Shown: positions 3,830 to 41,781 of the stretch, one piece after another
Layout of the letters: every line of letters starts with the position of its first letter
How positions within the stretch are numbered: the first letter of the stretch is position 1
IMG/VR virus record: IMGVR_UViG_3300031901_000001
Location: 3,303 to 67,302 of that record
Strand: one strand, 5' to 3'
Length of the DNA: 64,000 bases
From: a virus
Taxonomy: Duplodnaviria; Caudoviricetes
Made by a program: the position numbers and the translations under genes
Notes under the pieces: model-generated
Seen by the model: the letters and a program-made list of their open reading frames with translations, nothing else
What the model was told of the DNA's origin: nothing
The model's database searches: none

Positions 3830-4081
3830 ATGTTTCAAAAATGGAAAGATCGATTGATCGATGAAGCAAGGAACTGGCATAAGTTCTGGTCCAATCGCCT
3901 TGCGATCCTGTGGGGCCTGATCGTCACCGCATTCTGGAATGACCCGACAGCACTGCAGGAGATCGTCAATGTTCTGCCTGAGTCGACCCGGGCGCTGCTG
4001 TCACCGATAGTGCTCGCGATTGTCGCAGGACTGCCGATCATCGTGCGCCTAGTGAAACAGAACAACCTCACGAGGGAGTAG
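3830..4081 (+). CDS. Holin (2 TM)
   Basis: SD GGAGG; two hydrophobic segments; basic C-terminus; directly upstream of endolysin. Confidence 0.75.
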   Translation: MFQKWKDRLIDEARNWHKFWSNRLAILWGLIVTAFWNDPTALQEIVNVLPESTRALLSPIVLAIVAGLPIIVRLVKQNNLTRE

Positions 4082-4084
4082 AGT

Positions 4085-4609
4085 ATGGCGATTATATGGC
4101 CAAAGCCGCTTCCCGCCTGGATTGAAGTGGCGATGAAGTATCGGGGGCTCCGGGAAATTCCGGGTAAGGCCCATGCCCCCAAGATCCAACTAATGCTCAA
4201 GAAACTCAAAGCCTGGTGGTCAGACGATGAGACACCCTGGTGCGGGGTGTTCGTTGGCTTCTGCCTCAAAGAGGTCGGGCTTGCTATCCCTAAGAACTGG
4301 ATGCGAGCTCGTGACTATGAAGGCTGGGGCATCGGTAAGTTGATTGATCCCATCCCGTTCGGTTCGGTATGCACAAAGACTCGAGTTGGTGGCGGTCACG
4401 TATTCTTTGCGGTTGCACAGACCCGTGACGGGCAAACAGTCTTCGGGTTGGGGGGTAATCAATCGAACATGGTCAACATTACGGCCTTCAAGCGGAAAGA
4501 CATCACCGCTGTTCGATGGCCGAGTGATACCTCAGCACCGGTGATGCAACTGCCTTTTGCTACGTCAGCAGAATTAGCAGCTGCATCCATCGGCGGGAGC
4601 GAGGCTTAA
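4085..4609 (+). CDS. Endolysin, TIGR02594-like NlpC/P60/CHAP peptidase
   Basis: [17 protein letters not shown] and GGHVFF..GGNQSN motifs (catalytic Cys/His). Confidence 0.85.
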
Positions 4610-5337
4610 CGAAAATAGTTCTGATCATGGATGCGGCGTAATTCGTCTTGGGTGTAATCACCCCGACGCCTACGTTCTTCATCCCCACTATAGCCTCGCA
4701 TCTCATCAGTGAAGCGAGGTCTGCCCCGTCCCGGGAGTTGTAGTGATCCCATGCGATTTTCGGGCGGGGCTTCTTGCCAATCAAATTCGGGAAGCCTTTT
4801 CAATGTCGCTTCGATCAAGTCGATAGCGACCCCCGCATTTGTAATGATGTCTTTTTGGACATCGATCTCCCTCTCAAAGAAAATTTCCAGAGGATTTTTC
4901 CCTTCACCCTTATAGATCAATCGTGATTTTAATCTTTCCTGGACGGCGATCTCTCTTTCGGCCACAGGGATGCGGTCCCTTTCCGTGTGAAGCTTCCGGT
5001 TCAAGTTCTGAGATATTAACACGAAAGGGCGAGCGTTATTGAGCACCTCGACCCCATTGGTGTTGATCATCTCTTCAAAGCAAACGACAATGAAACGATC
5101 CACCTCTTCCTTGCTTCGTTCCTCCCTCTTGATCTTGCCATTGCGATCATAGTAAGCTCGCTTGTCCTCGTCGATCAAGGTCTCATAGGCTTCATTTAGC
5201 TTAGCGATCTTTTCTTCCGCCTTGGGGTCATCCGGGTTAAGATCGGGATGACACTCCATAGCCTTTCTTCGATAGGCTGACTTAATCTGCCTAATCGTCG
5301 CTGTGGTCTTCACCCCTAACAGCTCATAGAAATTCAT
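4606..5337 (-). CDS. DnaJ (J-domain) protein
   Basis: [38 protein letters not shown]: J-domain with HPD motif. Confidence 0.9.
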
Positions 5338-5636
5338 TGTCCATTCTCCGAGTTGAGGCGCTCGACCTCAGCCTTGTTCTTGTCGATAGCATCCCATGTG
5401 GAGTTGAGCTTGCTACGACAATCATCGACCGTCTCGAACAACTGGGCCAACAAGACAGACGTTGCAGTCTCATCAGCAACCTTCCGCTTCTTCGGCGTTG
5501 TCTTGCATGATCGCAAACGTTCGTCCGGTTCGACTGATTGCAGCTTTGTTTTCGTGACGATCCTAATCCCCAGCTGGGGCCTTTCTTTCCCACAGGAGGC
5601 TAGTGTCAGGGCGATCAAGGGTAGAAAGTATCTCAT
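5334..5636 (-). CDS. Outer-membrane spanin (o-spanin, Rz1-like lipoprotein)
   Basis: Signal peptide with lipobox LASC; downstream of i-spanin. Confidence 0.7.
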
Positions 5637-6025
5637 AACTTTCCTTTCATGTATTTTACTATTCTCTTGAACTCATGAAGCGACCCATTGCTCTTGAGCC
5701 AGTTAGCTCTCCAGCTTATTACCCGAACATTACCTCTCACGTAACCAAGGTCGTTGTCTATCCTATCAACGGTCGGGTAGTTATCTTCACTATAGTGAAC
5801 TTCAAACGTCAAGGGGATACCAAGGACGGGGCACTTATCAGGTATAACCAGGTCCTCTACGGTGAGATTAAAGCCCTGGCCTCTCATCCTAGATTTATTT
5901 TTGGTATTCTTCCAAAGATAATAACGAGGATCATGGGTTTTAAGGTATTCCCTACGTTTCTTCACCTGCCTACTTCGTTGCTCACCAGTTGTTCTTCGTC
6001 TCTTGATATTCCTTGCCGTGACCAT
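5633..6025 (-). CDS. HNH-type homing endonuclease
   Basis: CPVLGIPL..PTVDRIDNDLGYVRGNVRVISWRAN; paralogue of 17147-17632. Start reassigned to ATG 6025. Confidence 0.8.
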   Translation of the reverse strand: MVTARNIKRRRTTGEQRSRQVKKRREYLKTHDPRYYLWKNTKNKSRMRGQGFNLTVEDLVIPDKCPVLGIPLTFEVHYSEDNYPTVDRIDNDLGYVRGNVRVISWRANWLKSNGSLHEFKRIVKYMKGKL

Positions 6026-6027
6026 AT

Positions 6028-6459
6028 TCAGTCCCCCGACGGTGCCTTCCTGTCCCAGAGCAAGTCTAACGTCCGCTGGACAAGAGCAAAGTCGCACTTG
6101 TCAGAAGGAGCCGAGTTCGTGATGTCATGCTGGAGTTTTTCATAGAAATCTTCCCTTGCTGTGGCGAGCAAGTTTTCAGCATCGCCTATTGCCTTGTTGG
6201 TTTTCTGGAGATTACGATATTCGTTGGCAAGTCGCTCGTTCTCCTTGTTCGCATCAACCGCTTTCTCAAGTTCACCCTTGAGCTGAGTTGTTTGACGAGT
6301 TAAGGTGATCTTGTCGTCCTCGAGAGACTTGACGTAGTTGATATGGTTATAGATCGTTATGCCGATAACAACCAAGCAGATAATCGGTATAGCCCACCAT
6401 AGGATTGCCTTGATCTTATCCTTGGTGAACCACCCGAGCAATTTCAATGCCCAAGTCAT
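6028..6459 (-). CDS. Inner-membrane spanin (i-spanin, Rz-like)
   Basis: Single N-terminal TM, coiled coil, C-terminal Cys (SDKCDF). Confidence 0.7.
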   Translation of the reverse strand: MTWALKLLGWFTKDKIKAILWWAIPIICLVVIGITIYNHINYVKSLEDDKITLTRQTTQLKGELEKAVDANKENERLANEYRNLQKTNKAIGDAENLLATAREDFYEKLQHDITNSAPSDKCDFALVQRTLDLLWDRKAPSGD

Positions 6460-6854
6460 GATACCTCCTGTTTCTCGAATACTGTCCTAGCCCACTTGAC
6501 TAGGTCGGGGTCAGCTTTGTAGCCGGCATTTACCACCGTCACTATTCGCCCCGGGATGCCGGCTCGACGCATGAGCTTCCGGATGCGAGATACATGGATG
6601 TCGAAGATCTTGGGCTCGGGACCCCCATCATCCCGTTCGCCATAGATAAGTAAATGTAGTGAGTCACGGCTAACAATCGCCGGGGCTCGTTTGATCAAGA
6701 TGCCGAGGATACTCGCCTGCCTGTGGGTTATACCATGGCCGACGGACATTAATGCCCCCACTTCAGATGAACTGCCAGTCAAAGACTTTAGCTGTTCATC
6801 CTTAAGGGCCACCGTCTCCTCGAGCTGTTGTTCGCGGGTCAATTCGGTTGCCAC
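6456..6854 (-). CDS. OmpR/PhoB-type winged-helix protein without receiver domain (CtrA C-terminus-like)
   Basis: IVSRDSLHLLIYG..GPEPKIFDIHVSRIRK..IVTVVNAGY; GTG start at 6854 after SD GGAGGG. Confidence 0.8.
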   Translation of the reverse strand: MATELTREQQLEETVALKDEQLKSLTGSSSEVGALMSVGHGITHRQASILGILIKRAPAIVSRDSLHLLIYGERDDGGPEPKIFDIHVSRIRKLMRRAGIPGRIVTVVNAGYKADPDLVKWARTVFEKQEVS

Positions 6855-7032
6855 TATAAATGCCCTCCTTCCGGGGCATGATACCGTCCAGCAATGTGCC
6901 CAGTCAATACAGAGGCACATGAGGACGATTGCGTCAGCGTTCTGGCAGTTGAATTGATCGCGCAGGAAGCGCGTCAGGTGTAGCGATCAGCTCTAGTTGA
7001 TCATGTATCGCATCGACCTAGCGCAGCTACTG

Positions 7033-7065
7033 AAAAGCGCCCGGATCGTAATGACCCGGACGCTT
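7033..7065 (-). terminator. Rho-independent terminator
   Basis: Minus strand AAGCGTCCGGGTC-ATTAC-GATCCGGGCGCTT-TT downstream of the 7113-7454 gene. Confidence 0.65.
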
Positions 7066-7112
7066 ATCAAAGTTTCATCAGGAACCTCAAGGCCCTGGTC
7101 AGGCGAGAAGGA

Positions 7113-7454
7113 TCAGTCCTTGGACTTCTTCTTCTTGTCCTTCTTCTTGTCGCCCTTGCCGCTTTCCTTGTCGGCCTTCTTGGACTTGCCCTCATCGGAC
7201 TTCAGCTTGGCGGCGACTTCGTCGAGGTCACCCTTGGTGTTCCAGCCATAGCTCTTGCCGGCCTTGTCGATACCGGCGTTCCGCAGCTTGACGCGCACCG
7301 AGGCCGCCTCGATGCCCAGCTTTTCGGCCAGGTCGCTCACGCCATACTTGAACTCCGGCGCCGCAGCCTTCTCGGTCTTTTCCTTCTTGTCGGCCTTCGC
7401 AGCCTTGCCCTTGGTATCAGCCTTGGCGGCCTTTTCCTTCTTTTCCTTCGCCAT
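7113..7454 (-). CDS. Lys-rich small DNA-binding protein with a helix-turn-helix/W domain
   Basis: YGVSDLAEKLGIEAASVRVKLR..YGW flanked by K/A-rich tails. Confidence 0.8.
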   Translation of the reverse strand: MAKEKKEKAAKADTKGKAAKADKKEKTEKAAAPEFKYGVSDLAEKLGIEAASVRVKLRNAGIDKAGKSYGWNTKGDLDEVAAKLKSDEGKSKKADKESGKGDKKKDKKKKSKD

Positions 7455-12325: not shown

Positions 12326-14852
12326 ATTTCTCAATCCACTTCTCGTAACTGATCCCAGCACCCCAAGGACCTATCGTTCCATCAGCACAGATAGGCACCT
12401 TAAGATCGATTTCAAACTTCTGCAACAGCTCGGGTCCTGACATAATTCTCAGTCCGTGATCCCAAACAGCCTTGACATGATCGTTCCGGACCATCATCAA
12501 GATAGCGTCATGCACAGTCCCGACAATGCGGAATGCTTTCTTCGGGAAGTACTTAGCCATTTCAAGTGCCGCCATGAGGTTGAGCTCATTGGCGAACGAT
12601 TGGACCGGGCTGTTGATCGCCTGACGTTCAGCCTCTCTCCTCTGCGGAGTATCCCTGTGGGACATAGCATGAGGCAGTCGACGTTTACGACCGCTGAGTG
12701 AACGGACATAACCATTGGCGTTTGCGAACCGACGTTGGCGTTTATGCCACTTGGGGAATGCGGGGTAAAGGTCGAAGAATGCGACACGCGATGCTTCGGC
12801 TTCCTTGTCCGTAACTTCAACGCCGTAGTTATCACGTGCATATAGTTTGAACTTCTTCCACCACATGCCGTATAGATAACCGAAGTTGATAGCCTTTGCT
12901 TTCTTGCGATCCTCCTTCCAGTTAACGAAGGCTTCCTTGAGCTGCTTTGTTTCAGTCCAGTGCTTGACAGCATTGACTGCCTCATCGCCACCAATCGACA
13001 GCACATATTCTACTGCCTCATGATACTTCATCTTCTTGTACTTCTTGCCCTCCATTTTGTGGTGGGCTTTGGCAGTCTTTATCATTTCCTTTTTACGACC
13101 ACCACCGCGTTCAATCTCACGGATCGCCGTTTGCCAGTGTGGATCGCCGTCTTCAAAGAAGATCTGTAATAGGTTTTCTTCATTAGCCAACTCAGCTGCA
13201 ATACGCAACTCAATCTGACTAAGATCCATTTCCATTAGTGTCCATCCTTCCGGCGCTGTAATCAGCGTTCGGATGCGTGGGTCACGGGGGACTTGCTGGA
13301 GGTTGGGGTGCTCACAAGATAGCCGCCCAGTAACAGTCCCGTGAAGCTTGAAAACAGGATGAAGATAACCCTCAGTGTCGAGGAAAGGCTTCCACCCTTC
13401 AATGAACCCGGACAGTTGCTTAGTAGCAGCCCTAAACTTAAGAAGGTCGTTGACCATAGGATGATCGATACGAAGCAGTACAGACTCACTGGTCGACTCC
13501 TTTCCACCCTTGGTTTTTTCAACACTCTTTATCTTCAGGACATTGAAAAGAAGGTCAGCGAGTTGATCGCTTGACCCCCAGTTTATTTTCCCAGTCTTTG
13601 CATCGACCTTCTTAGCTTTTGCTGCCCATGGCTCGAGGTTTGTTTGAGCCTTTGACAATTCCTCACGCAGATAGGCTTCAGCATCGTCCATTTGCTTAAG
13701 GTTGATGTAAACGCCTTGGTACTCAGCATTCACGAAGAGTCCCACACAGGGCATCATAATATGCTTGAAGACTCGATTAACTTCGTAATCTTCACTTAGA
13801 CGCTTTGCAAAGATCGGCTTGAGCAACCGGGTGTAGTAAACGTCATGAGCCGCATACTTCGCGTTATCCGGAGACCACTCAGTCTTTTCTTTACCGTCAA
13901 TATCCCAGTCAGGAACACCGAGCTCTTTCTGTGCGAGATATTTCAGACCATGCTGGTCATTCTCATCCAATAGGTAGTGAGCAAGCATGGTGTCGAAATC
14001 GACTTTCCACTTTGCCCCGAACCTCACCTTCATCCACAGGCAGTCGAACTTGCCGTTATGGAAAACAGTGATGCACTTCTTCAGTGCCTTGCTAACTTTT
14101 TTGACTATCCAGCGTAGTCGTTGTTTCGACCATACACCGGCAGTCTCCATGGGCACGACCCATTGACGTTTCCTGCACCCGAACTGCATAGCTACCACTG
14201 CGGGAAGGTTCCCGTTGTGGGTAGCCTTGTGATCCTTGATGTCGTTGGGGGAAGCTTTCTTCGATGCGATTAACTCATCGAGCATCGTCATGAAGGGGTA
14301 GAGTCTCGAGGTTTCAAGGTCAACGGCAACAGTGCCGGTAAGGTCCTTGAGCATTTGTTGCACCTTTTTCTCGGTGTCAACAATAGTGTAGTCTAGTCCC
14401 TTTTCTTCAGGAATACCCCCAAAATCAAGGCACTCTTTCAATCTCCTAACATCACCTTCAATAACGCTTACCCACTTTTCATCGTGGAGTGCATAGTTGG
14501 GATGGTAGATAGGCAGGACAACCCGGCCTTCATGATCGATGGGCTTCCCCCGGAGGTTCCTAATACCACTACGCCCGAGCAACGCCTCACAAGGAGTGTT
14601 GCCCAGGAGTAGCATAAGTTTAGGATCAACTTTCTTGACACGCTTCTGGACCTGTGGGATACGATCCCGAAGCATTGTCTTCGTTACCCGTTTGCCGTCG
14701 GGCAATCCCTCCTCAAGAACATCGGTATATGATAGCTTCTTGGGGTTGAAGCCCGCCTTCACCAAGGCCTCGTTGAGGATCTTCTTGGCCCGGCCGTTCA
14801 TGTCGGGGTCTTGCCCGACAATCATGATGTCTTTTTGTTTTAGTTTCTTCAC
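12282..14852 (-). CDS. polA: Family A DNA polymerase with N-terminal uracil-DNA-glycosylase-like domain and 3'-5' exonuclease
   Basis: GQDP..LLLGN..PIYHPNY (UDG4-like); DLET, HNGKFD, YAAHD (exonuclease); DLSQIELR, KAINFGYLYG, VHD (polymerase motifs A/B/C). Confidence 0.95.
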   Translation of the reverse strand: MKKLKQKDIMIVGQDPDMNGRAKKILNEALVKAGFNPKKLSYTDVLEEGLPDGKRVTKTMLRDRIPQVQKRVKKVDPKLMLLLGNTPCEALLGRSGIRNLRGKPIDHEGRVVLPIYHPNYALHDEKWVSVIEGDVRRLKECLDFGGIPEEKGLDYTIVDTEKKVQQMLKDLTGTVAVDLETSRLYPFMTMLDELIASKKASPNDIKDHKATHNGNLPAVVAMQFGCRKRQWVVPMETAGVWSKQRLRWIVKKVSKALKKCITVFHNGKFDCLWMKVRFGAKWKVDFDTMLAHYLLDENDQHGLKYLAQKELGVPDWDIDGKEKTEWSPDNAKYAAHDVYYTRLLKPIFAKRLSEDYEVNRVFKHIMMPCVGLFVNAEYQGVYINLKQMDDAEAYLREELSKAQTNLEPWAAKAKKVDAKTGKINWGSSDQLADLLFNVLKIKSVEKTKGGKESTSESVLLRIDHPMVNDLLKFRAATKQLSGFIEGWKPFLDTEGYLHPVFKLHGTVTGRLSCEHPNLQQVPRDPRIRTLITAPEGWTLMEMDLSQIELRIAAELANEENLLQIFFEDGDPHWQTAIREIERGGGRKKEMIKTAKAHHKMEGKKYKKMKYHEAVEYVLSIGGDEAVNAVKHWTETKQLKEAFVNWKEDRKKAKAINFGYLYGMWWKKFKLYARDNYGVEVTDKEAEASRVAFFDLYPAFPKWHKRQRRFANANGYVRSLSGRKRRLPHAMSHRDTPQRREAERQAINSPVQSFANELNLMAALEMAKYFPKKAFRIVGTVHDAILMMVRNDHVKAVWDHGLRIMSGPELLQKFEIDLKVPICADGTIGPWGAGISYEKWIEKYGEVKQKDIEIEYA

Positions 14853-15331
14853 GGGTGCTCAACCACCTGTCGAGAAAAGTAATCCACGATGTAACCCGCC
14901 GGTGTCACCTCGAACACAGGGACTTTCTTTTCCCATAACAACTTCAAGGGTGAAGGGTCTCGATAGGCTCGTTCAAAGAATACCCTGCCGATAACCTGGC
15001 TATCGATGATAAGCCTGGCACAATCCTCACAAGGACTATCAGTGCAGTAAAGGTCAAGTCCGCCATTGGGGCAATACCCTACCAGCGACATCGGCAAATG
15101 ACTGATGGCATTACGCTCAGCGTGGGTTGTGCCGCAGCGACCCGGTACTACGCCCGGGCATTCGTTGCCGGCGCAATGCGCTGCTCCAGGTGCTGCACCG
15201 TTCCAGCCGATTGAGACCGGTCGATTGTCATGCGTAATGACGGCGCCAACATTCAACCTCATGCACGTTGATCGCTGGGATGCCAGTCTTGCGATCCCCA
15301 TAAACATCACGGCCCTCGAAATACGTCCCAT
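14849..15331 (-). CDS. dCMP deaminase
   Basis: STC.RL.VGAVI, GWNG, HAE.NA, SPCEDC zinc motifs. Confidence 0.9.
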   Translation of the reverse strand: MGRISRAVMFMGIARLASQRSTCMRLNVGAVITHDNRPVSIGWNGAAPGAAHCAGNECPGVVPGRCGTTHAERNAISHLPMSLVGYCPNGGLDLYCTDSPCEDCARLIIDSQVIGRVFFERAYRDPSPLKLLWEKKVPVFEVTPAGYIVDYFSRQVVEHP

Positions 15332-15380
15332 CTAACCGATCCTTTTCAAGATGTATGCCGCGGCTTTCTTGGAACCTGGC

Positions 15381-15419
15381 AGAGAGAAACCCCAGCGAGC
15401 CTTGAATAGCTCGCTGAGG
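15381..15419 (-). terminator. Probable terminator
   Basis: Minus strand CTCAGCGAGC-TATTCAAG-GCTCGCTGGG followed by TTTCTCTCT. Confidence 0.55.
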
Positions 15420-15441
15420 CAAACCCAACGGATCAGGAGTC

Positions 15442-16329
15442 TCACCGGCTGAGCCCCCAAAGTTGAAGGTAGTCATTCTTGAACATATGCAGGGAACCGA
15501 TCTGCATGTAGAAGTTCCCCAGCTTGAGGGGCTCATCTCGTCCCAGACTATGTAGTCTATCTGCCACCCATTGAACGAGACGGAGGGTGAGGAACAGGTC
15601 GTCACGGAAGTGTCGGACGAAGTCACAGGACCGGATATGATAATTAATGTGCATACGGCCATCGCGGACAAGGAAATGGTACCCAATAGTGCAAGGCGCG
15701 CGCTTGCTACCACCGCCCGTGTCTTCAGGGAACCATATGGGCAAATAGGCCTGTCGAGTGAGTTCATCACCTGCAAGAAGTTCGACCACGTCATTGAGGT
15801 CTCCATACTCGTACTTGATACCATGATGAGGACGAGGCATCACACCGCCGTTACTGTCACGATATTCATGGAGAGGGCCCATGATCTGCTCAGGCTCTCG
15901 GGTAGCATTGGCTATGAAGCCTGCGTATTTCGGCCAGTACCGCTCCATGTAGTTATGATTGAACTTGCCATTATCATCAAGGAAGGTTGAGGCCTTGTTA
16001 CCGTAGGGCCACTTGGACCATTGAACACCAGGATTGACGGGATACCCACAGACTCGTTCCCAAAAATGCTCCTCAGCCCAAGGCATATTAGGTTCAATAT
16101 CGCTGACTGCATTGTTCATCGCATCAGCAAGACCATGAACTCCTCGGTCATACTTCGACATCTCAACCCCAAAGGAACAGTTCGCTACTTCGAAGGTAGC
16201 CATCTCCGGCATTTTGGAGATGTCGGTCCCCTGCCATCGAGAGGTATGAACAACACTGCTGCGATACCTCAACCAGTGCGCTGCCTGGTCGATGCACTGC
16301 TTGAAATCAATATATAGCTGAGGCTTCAC
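15442..16329 (-). CDS. Thymidylate-synthase-fold enzyme 1, cytosine-type (putative dCMP C5-modifying enzyme)
   Basis: TRQA, APC, RSCDFVRHFRDD, GSLHMF; Asp at the ThyA N177 / T4 gp42 D179 position. Confidence 0.85.
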   Translation of the reverse strand: MKPQLYIDFKQCIDQAAHWLRYRSSVVHTSRWQGTDISKMPEMATFEVANCSFGVEMSKYDRGVHGLADAMNNAVSDIEPNMPWAEEHFWERVCGYPVNPGVQWSKWPYGNKASTFLDDNGKFNHNYMERYWPKYAGFIANATREPEQIMGPLHEYRDSNGGVMPRPHHGIKYEYGDLNDVVELLAGDELTRQAYLPIWFPEDTGGGSKRAPCTIGYHFLVRDGRMHINYHIRSCDFVRHFRDDLFLTLRLVQWVADRLHSLGRDEPLKLGNFYMQIGSLHMFKNDYLQLWGLSR

Positions 16330-17150
16330 TTGCTGTCCCCCTTCTTCTCAACATAGGCGTTCCGATGGCCAGGATGATTGTCCCGAAGATATTTCGTAAG
16401 CTTCTTTCGCTTCTTCCCCGTAATCATTTTGTCTGCTGTTTCCTTGACCTTCATAGCTTGAGCGAACTTCTCGATCCCGCGAAAATGCTCATCGCATAAG
16501 TATCGAGCTGTCCATTTTATCCACCAGTCAAAGAAGTGCCGGTCTTTTTCCCTGAGTTTATTTAATTTATCCTCCCACCCTTTCCAGTGAGCTATTGCGG
16601 TTGCGGCATATTGAGGATGAATAGTAACATTTGCAAAGTGACAAGTCATCCCCATAAATTCCATGCCCGAGAAGTCAAATCCGTCTAGCAGGATGTCTCG
16701 AATAAACACGAGGTCGGCGGGGAATTTCTTGAACAGCTCTGTGGTCCTATAGAATACATCGATCTTATACGCTTTCTTGCTCAGCTGAGTGATAACGACC
16801 GACTGAATGCAAGGCCCCATGACTGAGGCCCGCTTCGACTTCTTCACGATGTCATTCTTGAGGAAGTGATTGTAGGTGGTAAATCCCACAGAGCCGTAGG
16901 AGGGTTTCTTGCGACGTTCTTCCCAGAGCTTAAGAGCTGCGGCCTTCGACTCGGGATGAAGGTATCCCTTGATCAATAGGCCGAGCTTGTTGCGGGTATA
17001 TCCGCAGTCAGCTAGCGTGAGAGGGTCGTCCTCGTCCCATAAGTCGTAGAATACAAGCTTTCGGGTTTCTAGGATTTTCCTAGCCCCCGAGAATAAGTCA
17101 GCCTTCATCAAAGAAAGCCTAAAACAATGATCAAGCCATTCTTTTTTCAA
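16326..17150 (-). CDS. Highly divergent thymidylate-synthase-fold protein 2
   Basis: GPCIQSVVI..FYRTTELFKKFPAD: Cys-to-Arg spacing 21 and Asp at Arg+11, as in the TS fold. Confidence 0.65.
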   Translation of the reverse strand: MKKEWLDHCFRLSLMKADLFSGARKILETRKLVFYDLWDEDDPLTLADCGYTRNKLGLLIKGYLHPESKAAALKLWEERRKKPSYGSVGFTTYNHFLKNDIVKKSKRASVMGPCIQSVVITQLSKKAYKIDVFYRTTELFKKFPADLVFIRDILLDGFDFSGMEFMGMTCHFANVTIHPQYAATAIAHWKGWEDKLNKLREKDRHFFDWWIKWTARYLCDEHFRGIEKFAQAMKVKETADKMITGKKRKKLTKYLRDNHPGHRNAYVEKKGDSK

Positions 17151-17632
17151 GTGAGCCTCCGCTTCATGTATTTATAAATAGCCTTTATTTCTTCAAGGGA
17201 GGCGTCCGACTTAAGGCGATTAGCCCGCCAGCTTATTACTTCGACATTGCCCTTGATGTATCCTTTTGAGGTATCCACCCTGTCAAGAGTGGGTGAACCG
17301 TCTTTAACTGTTCTTGATCCCATCACTATAGGAATACCCAAAACGGGGCATACTTTCGGTATTTGAATGTCTTTCTCAGTGATGGTTACAGGCCAACCCC
17401 TTTTGTTGGCTAATCGAATTAAAGACTTTTCGGGGTTTTTTCTCCTCCAGGATTTGGCTTTCTTTTGGATTGTTATCTTATCCTTAGGTTGGCTATCCCT
17501 GTCCTTAATACATAATACACATCCGCCTTTAACTTTTCTTTTAGCGATGTGCCCCCGTTTACAGGGCTTACCGGTGAAGTAATAGTCTTCACCGTTATTG
17601 ATAGCCTTTCGTCTTAATCCCGGAGGAGGCAT
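17147..17632 (-). CDS. HNH-type homing endonuclease
   Basis: FTGKPCKRGH N-terminus; CPVLGIPI..PTLDRVD..GYIKGNVEVISWRAN. Confidence 0.8.
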   Translation of the reverse strand: MPPPGLRRKAINNGEDYYFTGKPCKRGHIAKRKVKGGCVLCIKDRDSQPKDKITIQKKAKSWRRKNPEKSLIRLANKRGWPVTITEKDIQIPKVCPVLGIPIVMGSRTVKDGSPTLDRVDTSKGYIKGNVEVISWRANRLKSDASLEEIKAIYKYMKRRLT

Positions 17633-17647
17633 TAGTATTCCCCGCTG

Positions 17648-18421
17648 TTACTGAGCTGTGTTTATATCAGTAATGTCACCCAAGTTCAACGCCGGTTTAT
17701 GAGCATGATCTCGTACCAGGTCCCGGTGATCCGGCTCAATCCAGCCTTCCGGTTTAACTACATCAAAGGTCGATCCCCGCTTTGACTCCTCGGGCTTCTC
17801 AGCACGCTTCTTTAGCATATTCGCCCTGTGGACTCGGCGCCATGCTTCTTTGAAAATACGAGGACCGAATTGAAGGTAGGCCGTACCGAGTTTGACATAA
17901 ACGCCGTCGACCAGTGCGTCGAGCTGTTTATGTAGTCCCTCGACAATGCCCTCGTCATCCTCTGTCTCGGCAGCGATGACAAGGGCCTCTCCCTCTTCTT
18001 GATATTCGTCGGTCTCCTCCCGGTCAAACAGGATGCGGAAATCCGCTAAGTCCTGACCGACATCATCAAGAACTCCGTTCAACAATCGGGGTTTGCCGTG
18101 ATAGCCCAAGTCGAATTTCTCATGGAAACCAACGATGTCGCCCATCATGTCGACCGGTAAGTCTTGGGGGTCGATGCCGAGCGCAAGTTCAACGGTGGTC
18201 GACAACGCCTCAAGGGCAATGATGGTGTTCTTGTCAACACCGACACGATAGTTGTCCCCGTGCGCGTGAGCAGCCTTACGCATGGAGACAAGCAAGGTGA
18301 TGAATTCTGTTGCTTCATCCTTATGGAACTTAATATGAAGGAACTCTGCGGGGTTTCCTTCCCGGTCAGTGAAGGCGACCAGGCGATCCCCGACTTCAAT
18401 GGTTTCAATATCCAAAATCAT
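17648..18421 (-). CDS. All-alpha NTP pyrophosphatase (MazG/DR2231-like) with extra N-terminal domain; possible dCTPase/dUTPase
   Basis: EETDEY..QLDALVDGVYV..G..W..VH.ANM.K. Confidence 0.8.
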   Translation of the reverse strand: MILDIETIEVGDRLVAFTDREGNPAEFLHIKFHKDEATEFITLLVSMRKAAHAHGDNYRVGVDKNTIIALEALSTTVELALGIDPQDLPVDMMGDIVGFHEKFDLGYHGKPRLLNGVLDDVGQDLADFRILFDREETDEYQEEGEALVIAAETEDDEGIVEGLHKQLDALVDGVYVKLGTAYLQFGPRIFKEAWRRVHRANMLKKRAEKPEESKRGSTFDVVKPEGWIEPDHRDLVRDHAHKPALNLGDITDINTAQ

Positions 18422-18912
18422 TCTCCCTTCGTGCGAGCTTCAAAGAATATAACTGTATCGATCAATGCATCCATGTCGTCTCCAATGCGATAGACGAAGT
18501 GAGCATGCTCCGCCGCCCATTGGCGATATAGGTAGAGAAGTTTGTTGTAATTGTTTTCGACATCGGAGAGATGCTTCTCCGTGTCATGATCCTTGACCAC
18601 GTGGCCACCGAGACCCCTGATGCCCGCATCGCAATAGATAATGATTGGGCGGCTCTCATAAAAGAGTCCAGTGCGTCCTGGAGTGATCGGATTTCCTTCG
18701 ACCCTAACAGCTCCATAGATAGCGTTGGAAATAACAGGGTGTCTGACAAAGACCGTGTCTTTGAGGTCATGGTAGCGATCCACTCTTTCATTAATTTCTT
18801 TGTCTGACAAGGGAGGTCCTTCACTCTCTTGCACGAGACGATTGAGCGCGTTGGCAAGATGGATACCCAAGGTACTCTTACCACTGTTGTCCATACCTTC
18901 TATCACGATCAT
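18418..18912 (-). CDS. Deoxynucleoside monophosphate kinase (P-loop)
   Basis: MIVIEGMDNSGKSTL; VRHP.IS..IYG (thymidylate-kinase-like). Confidence 0.85.
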   Translation of the reverse strand: MIVIEGMDNSGKSTLGIHLANALNRLVQESEGPPLSDKEINERVDRYHDLKDTVFVRHPVISNAIYGAVRVEGNPITPGRTGLFYESRPIIIYCDAGIRGLGGHVVKDHDTEKHLSDVENNYNKLLYLYRQWAAEHAHFVYRIGDDMDALIDTVIFFEARTKGE

Positions 18913-23154: not shown

Positions 23155-23183
23155 TTGATACTCATGACCCGTTGACGCATTAT
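23150..23183 (+). promoter_or_regulatory. Early promoter
   Basis: AGTAG-TTGATA-N17-CATTAT. Confidence 0.6.
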
Positions 23184-23219
23184 CGCAACATCGCAATGAC
23201 GCGATGAAGGAGGTTACAA

Positions 23220-24384: not shown

Positions 24385-24418
24385 AGTAGTTGCAAGCATT
24401 ATGCCATAATCGTATTAT
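24385..24418 (+). promoter_or_regulatory. Early promoter (TGCCAT class)
   Basis: AGTAG-TTGCAA-N6-TGCCAT-N5-TATTAT. Confidence 0.7.
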
Positions 24419-24460
24419 GATTGCATCAAAACGCAATGACGCGCATTGATGGAGGATACA

Positions 24461-26029: not shown

Positions 26030-26265
26030 GTGATATACGATGCGCGATTGCGTCGTTTGATCGCATGAAATGGGCGTATGAACGAGGATTTGGGGCATGC
26101 TTAGCGCGTACCGGAGGCGTGTCATGCATCATTGCACGTTCAACAAACATCGATCGCCTGAAACGCCTTAAAATTCTCGTCAAGATTTAAGCAGAACTGA
26201 GTGGTTGCGTCACGGATGCCATGCGTTCATTGTGCATGTGTCGATGCAATAACGCAATGACGATG
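26030..26265. repeat. Periodic CC/CT/GG/AG-free blocks, degenerate copy of 41527-41781
   Basis: Blocks 26030-26072, 26117-26157 and 26204/26220-26265; shares GTCGTTTGATCG, TCGCATGAAA and ACGCCTTRAAATYCTCGT with the 41.6 kb locus. Confidence 0.6.
26200..26233 (+). promoter_or_regulatory. Early promoter (TGCCAT class)
   Basis: AGTGG-TTGCGT-N6-TGCCAT-N5-CATTGT. Confidence 0.6.
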
Positions 26266-26781: not shown

Positions 26782-26815
26782 AGCAGTTGCATCGCGGTTG
26801 CCATACGCATATGAT
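26782..26815 (+). promoter_or_regulatory. Early promoter (TGCCAT class)
   Basis: AGCAG-TTGCAT-N6-TGCCAT-N5-TATGAT. Confidence 0.7.
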
Positions 26816-26846
26816 GATTGCATCAACGCAACAACGCGAGGATGAC

Positions 26847-27844: not shown

Positions 27845-27873
27845 TTGTATGCGGTATGCCATCATCATATGAT
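27840..27873 (+). promoter_or_regulatory. Early promoter (TGCCAT class)
   Basis: AGTAG-TTGTAT-N6-TGCCAT-N5-TATGAT. Confidence 0.7.
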
Positions 27874-27917
27874 GTTTGTGTTGATGCAATGACGCACACA
27901 ACGCGAACGGAGTTACG

Positions 27918-28364: not shown

Positions 28365-28846
28365 TCATGAAGCTTGAATATACCACAGATCAACATCAGC
28401 CATACTTCATGGAGATTATTCCCCCTTGGAGTGAAGACTTGATGTATATCATCGGTGAAGCCGCTGGCGGCGGTGATATGCAAGAGTTCGAGATCTGCCT
28501 TAACCACAATCAGTGGACTCAAGCGAAGCAGCTCAAAGTTGTGCGGCGGAAGGAGGGTGAGTCTGTCTTTGAGCACTGGGAGCGCACAGTCCTCGAGGCT
28601 CATGGCATCGTCTATGACGACTGGCTCAAGCACATTACTCAGAGGCAGCGCAACAAGAAGCTGCAAGAACATATGACGCAGCTCGAGACTATCATCGAGA
28701 ACTTGGAACGCTATCACGGAACTACGCTTGACATCGCTGAAGGAACTGTGACTGACGACGACCTGCAGAAGCTGACACGCGCCTTACAATCCTTGAGCGA
28801 AGGTGAAGACCTGCTCGATGATGTCTACTCCTCACACGGCGGTTAG
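28361..28846 (+). CDS. Hypothetical protein with C-terminal coiled coil
   Basis: SD AAGGAGG, coupled to upstream stop. Confidence 0.75.
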   Translation: MIMKLEYTTDQHQPYFMEIIPPWSEDLMYIIGEAAGGGDMQEFEICLNHNQWTQAKQLKVVRRKEGESVFEHWERTVLEAHGIVYDDWLKHITQRQRNKKLQEHMTQLETIIENLERYHGTTLDIAEGTVTDDDLQKLTRALQSLSEGEDLLDDVYSSHGG

Positions 28847-29424
28847 TCTTCATAGTCTAATATACCCCAGTCTGACGGCAGGGTCCAGGTGCTTTCTTTG
28901 TCTGCACCGAAGCCCTGCTGTACTTTTATGCAGCCAAGGGCATTCGCTGCTTTCCGGAATACTTCTGAATGTATATGCTTATACTTCTTTTTAAGCTTCT
29001 TCGGCGTTGTATAGCCCTGAGGTGATTTTATTATCTCCGTGATCAAGAGCTTTTCTGCCTGCTTGTAGTCTGTGGTGATTATATGATCACCATTACGGAC
29101 AAGATACTTGAACTCGACTGAGAGCTGTTTATTCATGTCCAATAGGATGTTCTCGTAGGTCCGTGTATGCTTGCTTCGGTACTTCGAAGCTTGTGTGTGC
29201 AGCTCTCGGTTAGATAAGATAGCATAATAGATCACGTAGGGCCAATACCACTCAGTCGGCGGTGTGTGATACCATCTTTTAATTATCGGCCTGGAGACTC
29301 CTAGCAAGCGGCACATTGGACTGATCTTGCCTTTACATAGTCGGTCTAGGGCTAAGAATGTAGCCTTAAAAGCTGTGATGTCTATCTGTGGAGATAATGC
29401 TTTCGATCGAGTCTTAGCGGACAT
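28843..29424 (-). CDS. DNA-binding protein: Cro-like HTH plus wHTH resembling the primase-helicase C-terminus
   Basis: MCRLLGVSRPIIKRW; FRKAANALG.IK..G...WTL vs IERAAKRMG.KVK..G..WTL. Confidence 0.7.
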   Translation of the reverse strand: MSAKTRSKALSPQIDITAFKATFLALDRLCKGKISPMCRLLGVSRPIIKRWYHTPPTEWYWPYVIYYAILSNRELHTQASKYRSKHTRTYENILLDMNKQLSVEFKYLVRNGDHIITTDYKQAEKLLITEIIKSPQGYTTPKKLKKKYKHIHSEVFRKAANALGCIKVQQGFGADKESTWTLPSDWGILDYED

Positions 29425-30238
29425 AACAGCACCGGGAGTGGTTATTAGGAATGAGTTTGAATGTGGGATGTTGGGAGTGTGGTGGGTGTGATGGAAATAG
29501 AGTGAGAGGAGTGATTAACATGTTGACGTAATCCCGTGTTAGAAGTTGCGCGAAGTTGTCGATATTTATTGGCGTTGTCCTTTATATACAAAACTGCGTA
29601 TTTTCACCCATCTGTAGAACTTACGCTTCGTGTATTGATAGCATGGAATGGTTAAGACATGCGAAAACGGTGCAAAGTATGATGGTTATAGCGTAGAAAT
29701 GCGATGTTGTCAATACCAGAAGCGTAAGTTAATAAAAAAGATAAAAAAATGAAGAATATGGTATATTCACGCGAGCAGGATTTGGTCAATGGATATGTAG
29801 ACAAGATGGATAAGGTGTAAGATACTCCAGTAATGGCAGCCCCGGAGCCATCGAGAGACCGTTTTGGGGCTTGATGTAATTACATTCTTACATGTAGTTT
29901 ATTGATGTCTTGATGGATATGGCCGTATCCGTCATGTCAATGCATGTAAAATTATGCCGCTGTGGGCAAGACAGGCTCAAGAGAAGACATGATATATCAT
30001 GACATCTGTATAGCTGTATGGGCTGTATAGGTTGGATATGGGTAGGTGGCAGCTTGTCTATCTGTGTAGGTGGGTAGGTCTATTAGTCCAGAGCTTTTTG
30101 CGGCTTGAGCAGACGAGTCGCGGGAGGCGACGACGGACGAGATGACATGATATATCATTACATTACGTGACAAGACATCATGATATATCATCACACCTGA
30201 AAAATGCGTCCGCATGAAAATAAATGTAATTACGTGTA
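29425..30238. other. Large non-coding region between divergent transcription units; candidate genome terminus/origin
   Basis: ~800 nt without credible ORF; A-tracts; three palindromes; followed by strong promoters. Confidence 0.55.
29988..30191. repeat. Three copies of the 12-bp palindrome ATGATATATCAT
   Basis: 29989-30000 (extends to CATGATATATCATG), 30147-30158, 30180-30191. Confidence 0.9.
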
Positions 30239-30266
30239 TTGACGTTGATGCATGATCGTGTATGAT
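30239..30266 (+). promoter_or_regulatory. Strong sigma70-like promoter
   Basis: TTGACG-N16-TATGAT with extended TG; a second TTGACA at 30301. Confidence 0.7.
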
Positions 30267-30378
30267 GATTTGCATGACGAACGCAATTGCATTCGTTTCT
30301 TTGACATTGTGAATATGCGATCATGTATCAATGAATACGCGCAATCACGCGCATATTCGTTGATAAGGATTACACGAC

Positions 30379-30795
30379 ATGACAAAGGTGAACATGCAAT
30401 CGAATGCGCGTGCACGCGATAACGTTTCGTCAAACGAAATGCGTAACAAGGCGCGCACGAAAACGATTGTTGAACCACGCAACATTGCGTTGAAAACAAT
30501 TCATGATGACATCATGCGCGATAATGCAAATGCGACAATCACGACGAAAAAAATGCGCGTTTGGTTACGCGCGAATGCACGTGATTTTGCACATGCGCAC
30601 AATGCATCATGGATGTTCACGCAACGTGAATATGATGTCGTTCGTTCGCAATTCGATGTGAAATATGCATCGAAAATCGAACGTGCATCGAAGCGCAACA
30701 CGCAATCGAATGACACGCCGAAAACGACGCGCAAGCGCAAAACGAACGTGAATGAAACGCCGAACGTCGAAACGCAAACGACAATCGACGCATAA
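30379..30795 (+). CDS. Early DNA-binding-like protein (HTH/W family) encoded in CY/RG-depleted DNA
   Basis: SD AAGGA; KKMRVWLR..SWMF; no Gly; Leu only TTG/TTA. Confidence 0.8.
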   Translation: MTKVNMQSNARARDNVSSNEMRNKARTKTIVEPRNIALKTIHDDIMRDNANATITTKKMRVWLRANARDFAHAHNASWMFTQREYDVVRSQFDVKYASKIERASKRNTQSNDTPKTTRKRKTNVNETPNVETQTTIDA

Positions 30796-30862
30796 CGCAC
30801 AACGAATACATGCATGAATTAACGTGCATGTATTCATTGATACATGATGAAAGGTGAAAACG

Positions 30863-31009
30863 ATGAATAATGTTAATGTTCGTTTCGACATGTCAGACGC
30901 ACACGTTCATGCGTTTGAACGCGAAATCGATCGTCGTGTCACGTTGTTTCAACGTCGTCGCGCAATCGCAATCGTCGCATCACGTTACGCATACCAAAGG
31001 AACGCATGA
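30863..31009 (+). CDS. Small early protein (48 aa)
   Basis: SD AAAGGTG; MNNVNVRFDMSDAHVHAFEREIDRRV...; translated by hand. Confidence 0.6.
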   Translation: MNNVNVRFDMSDAHVHAFEREIDRRVTLFQRRRAIAIVASRYAYQRNA

Positions 31010-31098
31010 TGATTATTGAACATCTGGAAATCAACGAATATGTGATATGCGTCATTGCAATCGCATACGTTGCGATACGATTTATCACACGTCGATGA
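31006..31098 (+). CDS. Small early membrane peptide (30 aa)
   Basis: SD AAGGA, ATGA overlap; YVICVIAIAYVAIRF followed by RR. Confidence 0.55.
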   Translation: MMIIEHLEINEYVICVIAIAYVAIRFITRR

Positions 31099-31262
31099 AT
31101 GAAAATGCATGATCGCATATTGACGATGAAATCTTTTCCGCATATGATTTCCGTGACCCGCCCCGTCCAAAATTCCAACGTCCATGCGTATCAGCAGTAC
31201 CAGCCCTCACCCGATAGAATTTGGGAATTAGGCTATCACGTAAATACGTGTAATCACCTCGG

Positions 31263-31291
31263 TTGACAAGCGCATTCCACCGCTATATTTT
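31263..31291 (+). promoter_or_regulatory. Sigma70-like promoter
   Basis: TTGACA-N17-TATTTT. Confidence 0.55.
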
Positions 31292-31339
31292 CAGCAACAC
31301 CGACGATAAGTTCGGGAACCGTCTAATAGGAGACGTTAT

Positions 31340-31861
31340 ATGCAACCCTACTCATATGCTATTGTTGGTCAGCAGTTCTTTTGGCAAGCCCAAAATGATA
31401 TGATCTCTATCACCGCTATTCCTACGGGGTGGTTGGTTGTTATGGCTGACCATGAATATGACTCCCTTACTCCCCAGAATACCATAATGATCCCGGATAA
31501 AGACCACCACCTTAATCCACGGGCTATTATTCCGGCAGGTTGGCAAGAAATCCTTGAAGACTGCACCGGCCATAAGACTGAGCACCAGGACATGGCCAAC
31601 CTCCTGTGGGATAAGGGTGGCCAAAGGTCCTTCGAAGATACCTACAAGGGTAAGTGGGCTTCTGTGGAGTCGGATGTCAGCGGTATACCTCTACTCCAGT
31701 CGATCTATGATGCTTTGCGACAGTGTAACTTCTCAGATGTCCATATTGCTGGCCCAAGGCCGTCGGGTGACTGCAGGGGCTTTTGGGTTAACCCCGCTAA
31801 GAAGGGCAAGAGCACCGGCAAGAAGCAGTTCCGTATTGTCATCCTTGAAGACAAGAACTGA
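31340..31861 (+). CDS. Hypothetical protein
   Basis: SD AGGAG. Confidence 0.75.
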   Translation: MQPYSYAIVGQQFFWQAQNDMISITAIPTGWLVVMADHEYDSLTPQNTIMIPDKDHHLNPRAIIPAGWQEILEDCTGHKTEHQDMANLLWDKGGQRSFEDTYKGKWASVESDVSGIPLLQSIYDALRQCNFSDVHIAGPRPSGDCRGFWVNPAKKGKSTGKKQFRIVILEDKN

Positions 31862-41526: not shown

Positions 41527-41781
41527 GTCGCGTTTGTGCATCGATCACGCATCATCGATCAATGAAACATCGATTAACGTCCTGAGGCGTCCCAGAATTG
41601 ATCTGAGGACGCCTTTATTGTGTCGTTTGATCGTGCGTTATGTGTTGCGTGTCGAATATCGCATGAAACTGGCACAAAAATAGCGCCTCGGGCGTTACCA
41701 AGGCGCGTCATATGCGTTCGATATGTGCAATCATGCGTCGATTGACGCGATAACGTCCTAAGACGCCTTGAAATCCTCGTT
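41527..41781. repeat. Three 55-56-nt blocks free of CC/CT/GG/AG, spaced 87-89 nt
   Basis: 41527-41581, 41614-41669, 41703-41757; blocks 1 and 3 end in TAACGTCCTRAGRCG. Confidence 0.75.
41585..41619 (+). terminator. Terminator at the convergence of transcription
   Basis: AGGCGTCC-CAGA-ATTGA-TCTG-A-GGACGCCT-TTATT. Confidence 0.7.

Follow-up and report, generated by a model that had tools for sequence, protein, structure and literature searches.

What could lead a phage to expel two complementary pairs of dinucleotides, CC/GG and CT/AG (5'-CY-3' on one strand, 5'-RG-3' on the other), from about one kilobase of its genome, even at the expense of the proteins encoded there? The question is raised by a window of 64,000 nt (the whole stretch of DNA analysed) that forms part of a 67,302-nt contig of an uncultured tailed phage (G000), the ends of which share 127 nt and thus indicate a circular assembly of the phage genome. 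Gene content is siphovirus-like (PolA, helicase, primase-helicase, terminase, portal and tape-measure genes), the source metagenome and two further metagenomes with the sequence are all from the rhizosphere, no RNA data set being listed among those that contain it, and the nearest isolate is Brevundimonas phage vB_BpoS-Polewnik, whose PolA is 56% identical (PMC10070969).

Mapping of every occurrence places an island at 30141-31132, sharp-edged on both sides, with 26 CC, CT, GG and AG steps among 991 (AG 9, GG 8, CC 6 and CT 3 on the + strand), compared with 211 ± 10, and never fewer than 179, in mononucleotide shuffles of the island (binomial p = 5e-85 against the genome frequency of 0.249). 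An earlier sequence-only reading had set the limits at 30241-31130, which captured the depletion and fell slightly short of its extent; within those limits its count of about 22 banned steps is exactly 22 (AG 8, GG 8, CC 4, CT 2), and its expectation of about 190 compares with 195.6 from base composition. TT, TC, AA and GA are, as had been claimed, common there (odds 1.04-1.20, normal levels), CG is enriched (2.41), and CA/TG and AT steps are also enriched in the island. What does not hold is the description of the genome outside the island as rich in CT/AG: over the contig the four banned dinucleotides sit simply at expectation (odds 0.93-1.04), genome-wide site under-representation is not seen, and the depletion is local. 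The sliding-window check proposed with that reading, run in 900-nt windows on the whole 67,302-nt contig, returned a single minimum, at the island, for AG/CT (10; mean 112, sd 15.7) and in the same place for CC/GG (13; mean 112, sd 18.5), and no other stretch of the 67.3-kb contig is depleted to this degree. Restriction-site or palindrome avoidance likewise removes short words from phage DNA by selection, whereas the island is local, defined at the level of dinucleotides and, in some relatives, strand-specific; eleven of the twelve 4-bp palindromes that lack banned steps occur in it (CATG 20, ACGT 16, GCGC 13 and GATC 4 times, among others), GTAC alone being missing. The features in and around the island, together with those considered further below, are collected in Table 1.

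Table 1. Coordinates, in the window, of the island and of associated features.
Feature	Position	Strand	Basis
Nucleotide module: dCMP deaminase, TS1, TS2, HNH, MazG-like hydrolase, P-loop kinase	14849-18912	-	Pfam/PHROG, alignment
Early promoter/leader free of the four dinucleotides	23170-23208	+	promoter spacer to Shine-Dalgarno site
Early promoter/leader free of the four dinucleotides	24405-24451	+	promoter spacer to Shine-Dalgarno site
Two further CY/RG-free blocks	26030-26157		
Early promoter/leader free of the four dinucleotides	26220-26265	+	promoter spacer to Shine-Dalgarno site
Early promoter/leader free of the four dinucleotides	26802-26839	+	promoter spacer to Shine-Dalgarno site
Early promoter/leader free of the four dinucleotides	27860-27909	+	promoter spacer to Shine-Dalgarno site
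Divergent 193-aa gene flanking the island, transcribed away from it	28843-29424	-	homologues 23-29% identical
ATGATATATCAT palindrome, three copies, the last two in the island's left end	29981-30005, 30139-30163, 30172-30196		
CY/RG-free island	30141-31132		dinucleotide counts, shuffles, 900-nt windows
Promoter-like TTGACG-16-TATGAT, 10/12 matches, upstream of first gene	30239-30266	+	consensus match only
Conserved first gene, basic 138-aa protein without Gly	30379-30795	+	ORF, family comparison
48-aa ORF with AAGG Shine-Dalgarno site	30863-31009	+	ORF; no family found
30-aa hydrophobic ORF	31006-31098	+	ORF
Promoter-like TTGACG-17-TATGAT, 10/12 matches, straddling the island's right edge	31120-31148	+	consensus match only
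C-rich, G-poor tract from the island's end	31133-31215	+	sequence
Three 55-56-nt CY/RG-free blocks, hairpin linkers between	41527-41757		

The island has the layout of a small promoter-and-gene cassette. No sigma-70-like match in the 12-kb early region of the window scores better than its two promoter-like sites, in line with the earlier idea of a region readable by host RNA polymerase; the palindromes at its left end and just outside it may be operators, and the C-rich, G-poor tract at its right edge resembles a boundary element or a site for Rho loading. In four relatives (L158, L165, L162 and G003) the right island edge is likewise marked by a burst of CY steps without RG. In relatives the first gene is likewise followed by small hydrophobic ORFs, and the 193-aa neighbour borders the island in most of them, while as a query against viral contigs this neighbour gave no match. 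Pfam and PHROGs returned no assignment for the island proteins, and an Rfam search of 29300-31400 found no family.

The product of the first gene belongs to a family of 108 clusters in a large metagenomic protein collection, all of them unnamed and devoid of any Pfam or PHROG domain, whose members are 39-87% identical to the query and nearly Gly-free; among isolate phages, neither the 28-34 kb segment (megablast) nor the 138-aa protein (tblastn) gave a match. Residues 35-110 form a compact core in the predicted structure (pLDDT 71), for which fold matches are weak (Foldseek best match RacA, E 0.47, TM 0.62 to the target; VIA, Z at most 4.9 with several MerR-type rows) and fall mostly on winged-helix DNA-binding domains of the MerR/RacA/GlnR type, so that the product is plausibly a small basic DNA-binding protein.

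The reach of the purge into coding sequence is best seen by comparing the three island ORFs (216 codons) with 14 other genes of the same phage. Codons with an internal banned step fall from 46% in the other genes to 5%, codon junctions with a banned step from 25.7% to 2.3%, Leu from 8.2% to 1.9%, Pro from 4.2% to 1.4% and Gly from 7.0% to none at all in the 216 codons. Ala (24/24), Thr (19/19) and all Ser codons end in A or G only, 26 of 27 Arg codons are CGA, CGC or CGT, Leu is TTG or TTA bar one CTG, Glu is GAA in 11/11 and Gln CAA in 7/7 cases, and the 138-aa ORF holds no CT, so that the codon claims of the sequence-only reading stand, including the absence of Gly from all three ORFs. Its account of the exceptions is borne out as well, many of them being AAGG at Shine-Dalgarno sites, TGG, CCN and AAG. 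When the 138-aa gene was redrawn synonymously from genome codon usage (1000 draws), 34 RG and 35 CY steps were predicted and the lowest draws held 19 and 23, against 8 and 3 observed. The purge, which had been suspected to cost protein sequence, thus strikes codons, codon junctions and amino-acid content alike, and it is maintained by selection.

These codon data also dispose of a mutational origin through deaminase-type hypermutation or biased repair, an explanation to which we assign almost no probability. The phage does carry a gene of the dCMP-deaminase family, and hypermutation of the APOBEC/AID type likewise depletes C and G according to the neighbouring base. However, four-fold degenerate codons whose last base is A or G and not C or T (every Ala and Thr codon in the island) call for Y-to-R transversions, which excludes a deaminase origin; moreover, the products of deamination are not enriched (TT, TC, AA and GA are not raised), the edges of the island are sharp, the genes are intact and the protein conserved, and Shine-Dalgarno sites as well as Trp and Pro codons have been kept.

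Conservation of the island was assessed in 20 whole contigs assembled out of 80 loci that a PolA query retrieved from viral contigs, and in further loci fetched through members of the 138-aa family (L159 repeats L158 and L161 repeats L160, while L163 overlaps L162). Besides this one, 18 loci encode the 138-aa protein; 16 of them carry an island, and the remaining two (G005 and G007) have a weak version only; lengths range from 250 to about 1360 nt, and the seven further independent loci reached through family members all possess one (556-1362 nt). Every island-bearing contig encodes a homologue of the 138-aa protein within its island, although in Polewnik the likeness is weak. Since the island is kept while the protein varies from 39 to 87% identity across loci, it is conserved as a property and not as a sequence. 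Island-less relatives have no island of any other dinucleotide either, and 12 more distant contigs, which share replication and nucleotide genes only, lack both the 138-aa family and the island.

Strand symmetry varies among these loci. The purge of both strands is complete in 11 (this window counted), partial in one and absent in four; G001, G002 and G004 each hold one island purged on both strands, whereas G003, G006 and G008 are purged of RG only, and altogether four to five loci are RG-free on the coding strand alone. When all relatives are oriented alike, the coding strand of the 138-aa protein is RG-free, that is, the template strand is CY-free, and freedom of the other strand from CY is confined to some of them. 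One locus, L166, holds 12 exceptions in 1022 nt against about 240 expected, and its first gene starts without a Shine-Dalgarno site. In Polewnik (L001), 2.8 kb at 4000-6800 contain 0-1 AG per 100 nt and little GG on the + strand, with CT and CC at normal levels, over six rightward genes, an apparent terminator hairpin near 6040-6075 and a leftward gene at 6288-6752; a second element, a 250-nt two-strand island, follows at 6880-7120. StAshley, a phage of Polewnik's host, proved unrelated and carries 7-deazaguanine genes.

The level at which the ban operates follows from its position. Purged DNA extends upstream of any promoter-like site for about 100 nt in G000 and, with zero exceptions, for ~165 nt in L158, so that the cause acts on DNA and not on mRNA alone; no wider sequence context surrounds the exceptions that islands tolerate, which makes the dinucleotide step itself the target. 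The ban, which acts on DNA, is real and strong, and it is both conserved and under selection. It also has counterparts elsewhere in the genome, namely in the five early promoters or leaders listed in Table 1 and in 25 CY/RG-free runs of at least 28 nt in G000, compared with 7.5 in Markov simulations; such runs are frequent only in genomes with symmetric islands.

An RNA-level cause, in which AG/GG, and often CC/CU too, are kept out of the early mRNAs, either as an escape from a dinucleotide-specific RNA enzyme or in order to leave the true Shine-Dalgarno site unpaired and as the sole ribosome-binding-like sequence, deserves mention on account of the RG-free coding strand, the one feature common to all relatives, and of the leaders of the other early genes, which are purged exactly as far as the Shine-Dalgarno site. 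RNA ADP-ribosyltransferases with dinucleotide specificity do exist, CmdT acting at GA. We nevertheless consider such a cause improbable, given that the purged promoter-upstream DNA is probably untranscribed, that the CY purge of the same strand, in a pattern that is symmetric at most loci, has no simple RNA rationale, that even Shine-Dalgarno sites are lost in L166, and that the purge in Polewnik keeps to one DNA strand beyond an apparent terminator and through a gene of opposite orientation.

If a reader of DNA is at work, one place to look for it is the phage's own nucleotide metabolism. Adjoining PolA and transcribed leftward is a module (Table 1) in which TS1, when aligned to the Lactobacillus casei thymidylate synthase, has Asp at the uracil-specifying Asn position (Asn177/Asn229); TS1 is hence of the cytosine type, a signature of dCMP-modifying relatives, and the module is a candidate source of substituted cytosine. 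Beside TS1 lies a TS-like ORF, TS2 (16326-17150, -), with no Pfam match and a weak PHROG match, which is kept in 19 of 20 related contigs, including island-less ones. An HNH/endonuclease VII-like gene (17147-17632, -) is inserted in the module and is shared by few relatives only (G001 and G007), and it is therefore probably a homing endonuclease.

Having lost the step, this putative immediate-early cassette would, in the most general terms, escape a DNA-level reader of 5'-CY-3' or 5'-RG-3', and the most likely such reader would be the phage's own chemistry. TS1, the kinase and the MazG-like hydrolase probably swap C for a 5-substituted C, a secondary, context-dependent mark would then sit on C before a pyrimidine, and a cassette lacking CY sites would form a built-in unmarked stretch of the injected chromosome, which host RNA polymerase, sigma factor and regulators could recognise and whose template strand they could read at once. 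That the island is a zone free of such a mark is the reading we put first, though tentatively and at less than an even chance. It presupposes a modified DNA, a mark that depends on CY and interferes with recognition or transcription, and a cassette that is the first to be transcribed. It accommodates an extreme purge that is the only one in the genome, acts below the level of protein (codons, junctions and synonymous redraw) and recurs in 16 of the 18 other loci, with eleven loci, this window counted, purged on both strands; it further accommodates the purging of promoter-upstream DNA and of other early promoters, a target no larger than the dinucleotide step, and the coexistence of a cytosine-type TS1 with kinase, MazG-like hydrolase and dCMP deaminase. 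The strand that is CY-free in all relatives is moreover the template of the first gene, as would be expected of a C mark kept off the template.

Several observations weigh against a phage-made mark as the whole explanation. The nucleotide module is found in 20/20 contigs (complete in 19, partial in G020), and its kinase-MazG-TS2-TS1-deaminase-PolA arrangement recurs in 11 of the 12 more distant contigs without an island, so that the link to the TS cluster proposed earlier is upheld as to the cytosine type of TS1 and weakened as to the module's company. Close relatives with the same module span the range from strict two-strand to weak purge (G005 and G007), and no gene of G000 tracks the symmetric, one-strand or weak form across relatives. 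The genome has no TGT/DpdA, C5 methylase or N6/N4 methylase, and Pfam and PHROG scans of about 45 ORFs yielded no candidate for a context-specific DNA-modifying writer; the CY-context modification claimed in the sequence-only reading thus agrees with the CY-free template strand and lacks a recognised enzyme. The template rule also fails to explain Polewnik, in which the RG-free + strand crosses the opposite gene at 6288-6752, and T4, whose fully substituted DNA is transcribed by host polymerase, is not known to have any such window. Taken together, the presence of the module in island-less contigs and the variable purge among relatives suggest that it may be necessary and is not sufficient, and that an accessory factor, of phage or host, must set the purge pressure.

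A host defence that targets CY/RG was the alternative named in the sequence-only reading, and the island may have arisen to evade such an enzyme, whether it reads the step in duplex DNA, in single-stranded DNA exposed during transcription, or on a substituted cytosine in CY context, with base ADP-ribosyltransferases, glycosylases and modification-dependent nucleases as candidate types; the cassette alone would then be purged because it must work before the counter-defence protein exists. We judge this possible, though doubtful, and nearly as likely as the phage's own modification. A near-absolute ban resembles the avoidance of lethal sites, and the points that trouble a phage-made mark turn here to advantage, since close relatives that share one nucleotide module differ in purge strength, which no phage gene tracks. 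Most genes specific to the island clade are structural, and the island accompanies the structural module of G000 rather than its replication module; the weakly purged G005 and G007 also lack the distal tail proteins of G000, a weak hint of different hosts. A NADAR gene is present in the early region of L160, a relevant find in that NADARs remove ADP-ribose from guanine and cytosine bases (PMC11543638, PMC12945103).

The NADAR-domain gene of L160 lies at L160:6221-6745, downstream of the L160 island. Against a host enzyme, there is no known defence specific for CY/RG, and DarT1 is without a consensus motif; cuts by a nuclease outside the island would remain lethal in the absence of stepwise entry, and a lesion model needs no purge of promoter-upstream DNA. 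As separate observations, a DnaJ-domain protein (4606-5337, -) and a stand-alone OmpR-type winged-helix (Trans_reg_C) protein (6456-6920, -) are specific to the island-bearing clade.

Two further explanations have lower odds. The first invokes, with neither a chemical mark nor a defence enzyme, a physical or recognition property of step-free DNA, such as promoter melting, polymerase-driven entry, or the exclusion or recruitment of nucleoid proteins, and could appeal to the coincidence of the purge with promoters and regulatory palindromes and to the enrichment of CG, CA/TG and AT steps. It is nonetheless distinctly unlikely: no known protein or structural transition relies on the lack of AG/CT and GG/CC, promoter function would hardly justify clearing an entire coding region and sacrificing Gly, Leu and Pro for it, and one-strand purges speak against a feature of the duplex. 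The second, avoidance of CRISPR PAMs, starts from the fact that the PAMs CC, NGG/NAG and AAG/AGG/GAG all contain banned steps. Shielding 1 kb of a 67-kb genome would, however, bring little benefit, and where the purge is one-stranded (Polewnik, G003, G006 and G008) PAMs persist on the opposite strand, which makes this very unlikely indeed.

Among described systems, the closest precedent, by analogy, is the absence of target sites from the first-step-transfer region of T5-like phages, which resist restriction, CRISPR and Ssp only if the region transferred first lacks recognition sites (PMC10644984). That pre-early region is a short, strongly promoted, first-expressed block in need of freedom from target sites, as the island would be, and T5-like traits are present here in the form of two 10/12 sigma-70-like promoters and three small ORFs without known family. 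T5, however, avoids specific sites of 5-13 bp, whereas the island bans two complementary dinucleotide pairs and has its proteins rewritten; in addition, the T5 region has been mapped to a terminal repeat, the first part to enter the cell, whereas the island is known from a circular assembly.

On the side of chemistry, phage CAjan places preQ0 at two motifs, a context-specific hypermodification (PMC7544227). Like the secondary marks of T-even and thymidine-hypermodifying phages, it exemplifies a phage pathway that marks a base in short contexts only; the present phage encodes a cytosine-type TS module and differs in that no CY-specific writer was recognised for its putative modification.

A limited full-text search of the literature returned no description of such islands or of a modification-free early window. 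We consider it somewhat better than an even bet that dinucleotide-purged early cassettes are a general negative imprint, one that reveals the specificity of an otherwise invisible DNA-level reader. For this clade, the same imprint would predict either a new CY-context mark on a substituted cytosine or a new host enzyme that reads CY, in each case with a hard-wired clean window where infection starts. If a DNA-level reader does drive the ban, the sequence already displays the specificity (C before a pyrimidine) of a phage mark or of a bacterial defence, and a two-letter DNA step under selection can deprive an entire protein family of Gly, Leu and Pro, which would be relevant to gene finding, to codon-usage models and to the design of early cassettes in engineered phages. 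Brevundimonas phage Polewnik on B. pondensis LVF1 offers a cultured test system.

As regards the ends of the genome, the assembled contigs of the source and of the relatives give no support for a terminus at the island. In the source run, one Logan contig breaks off at the left edge of the island (30133-30162), and the Logan contigs of four relatives are uncut at their islands. In one JGI assembly, the first 795 nt of L162 (L162:1-795) are identical to the last 795 nt of L163 (contigs of 20.3 kb and 50.0 kb) and contain the island; the overlap surrounds the island without matching its edges, and this shared end may reflect terminal redundancy, a repeat node or a segment common to different strains.

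Smaller purged arrays lie elsewhere in the genome. The blocks at 41527-41757 and 26030-26157 measure 41-56 nt, recur ~88 nt apart and are separated by linkers rich in banned steps, and paired blocks of similar spacing are seen in G002, G003, G004 and G008, as well as in the island-less G009, G014 and G018.
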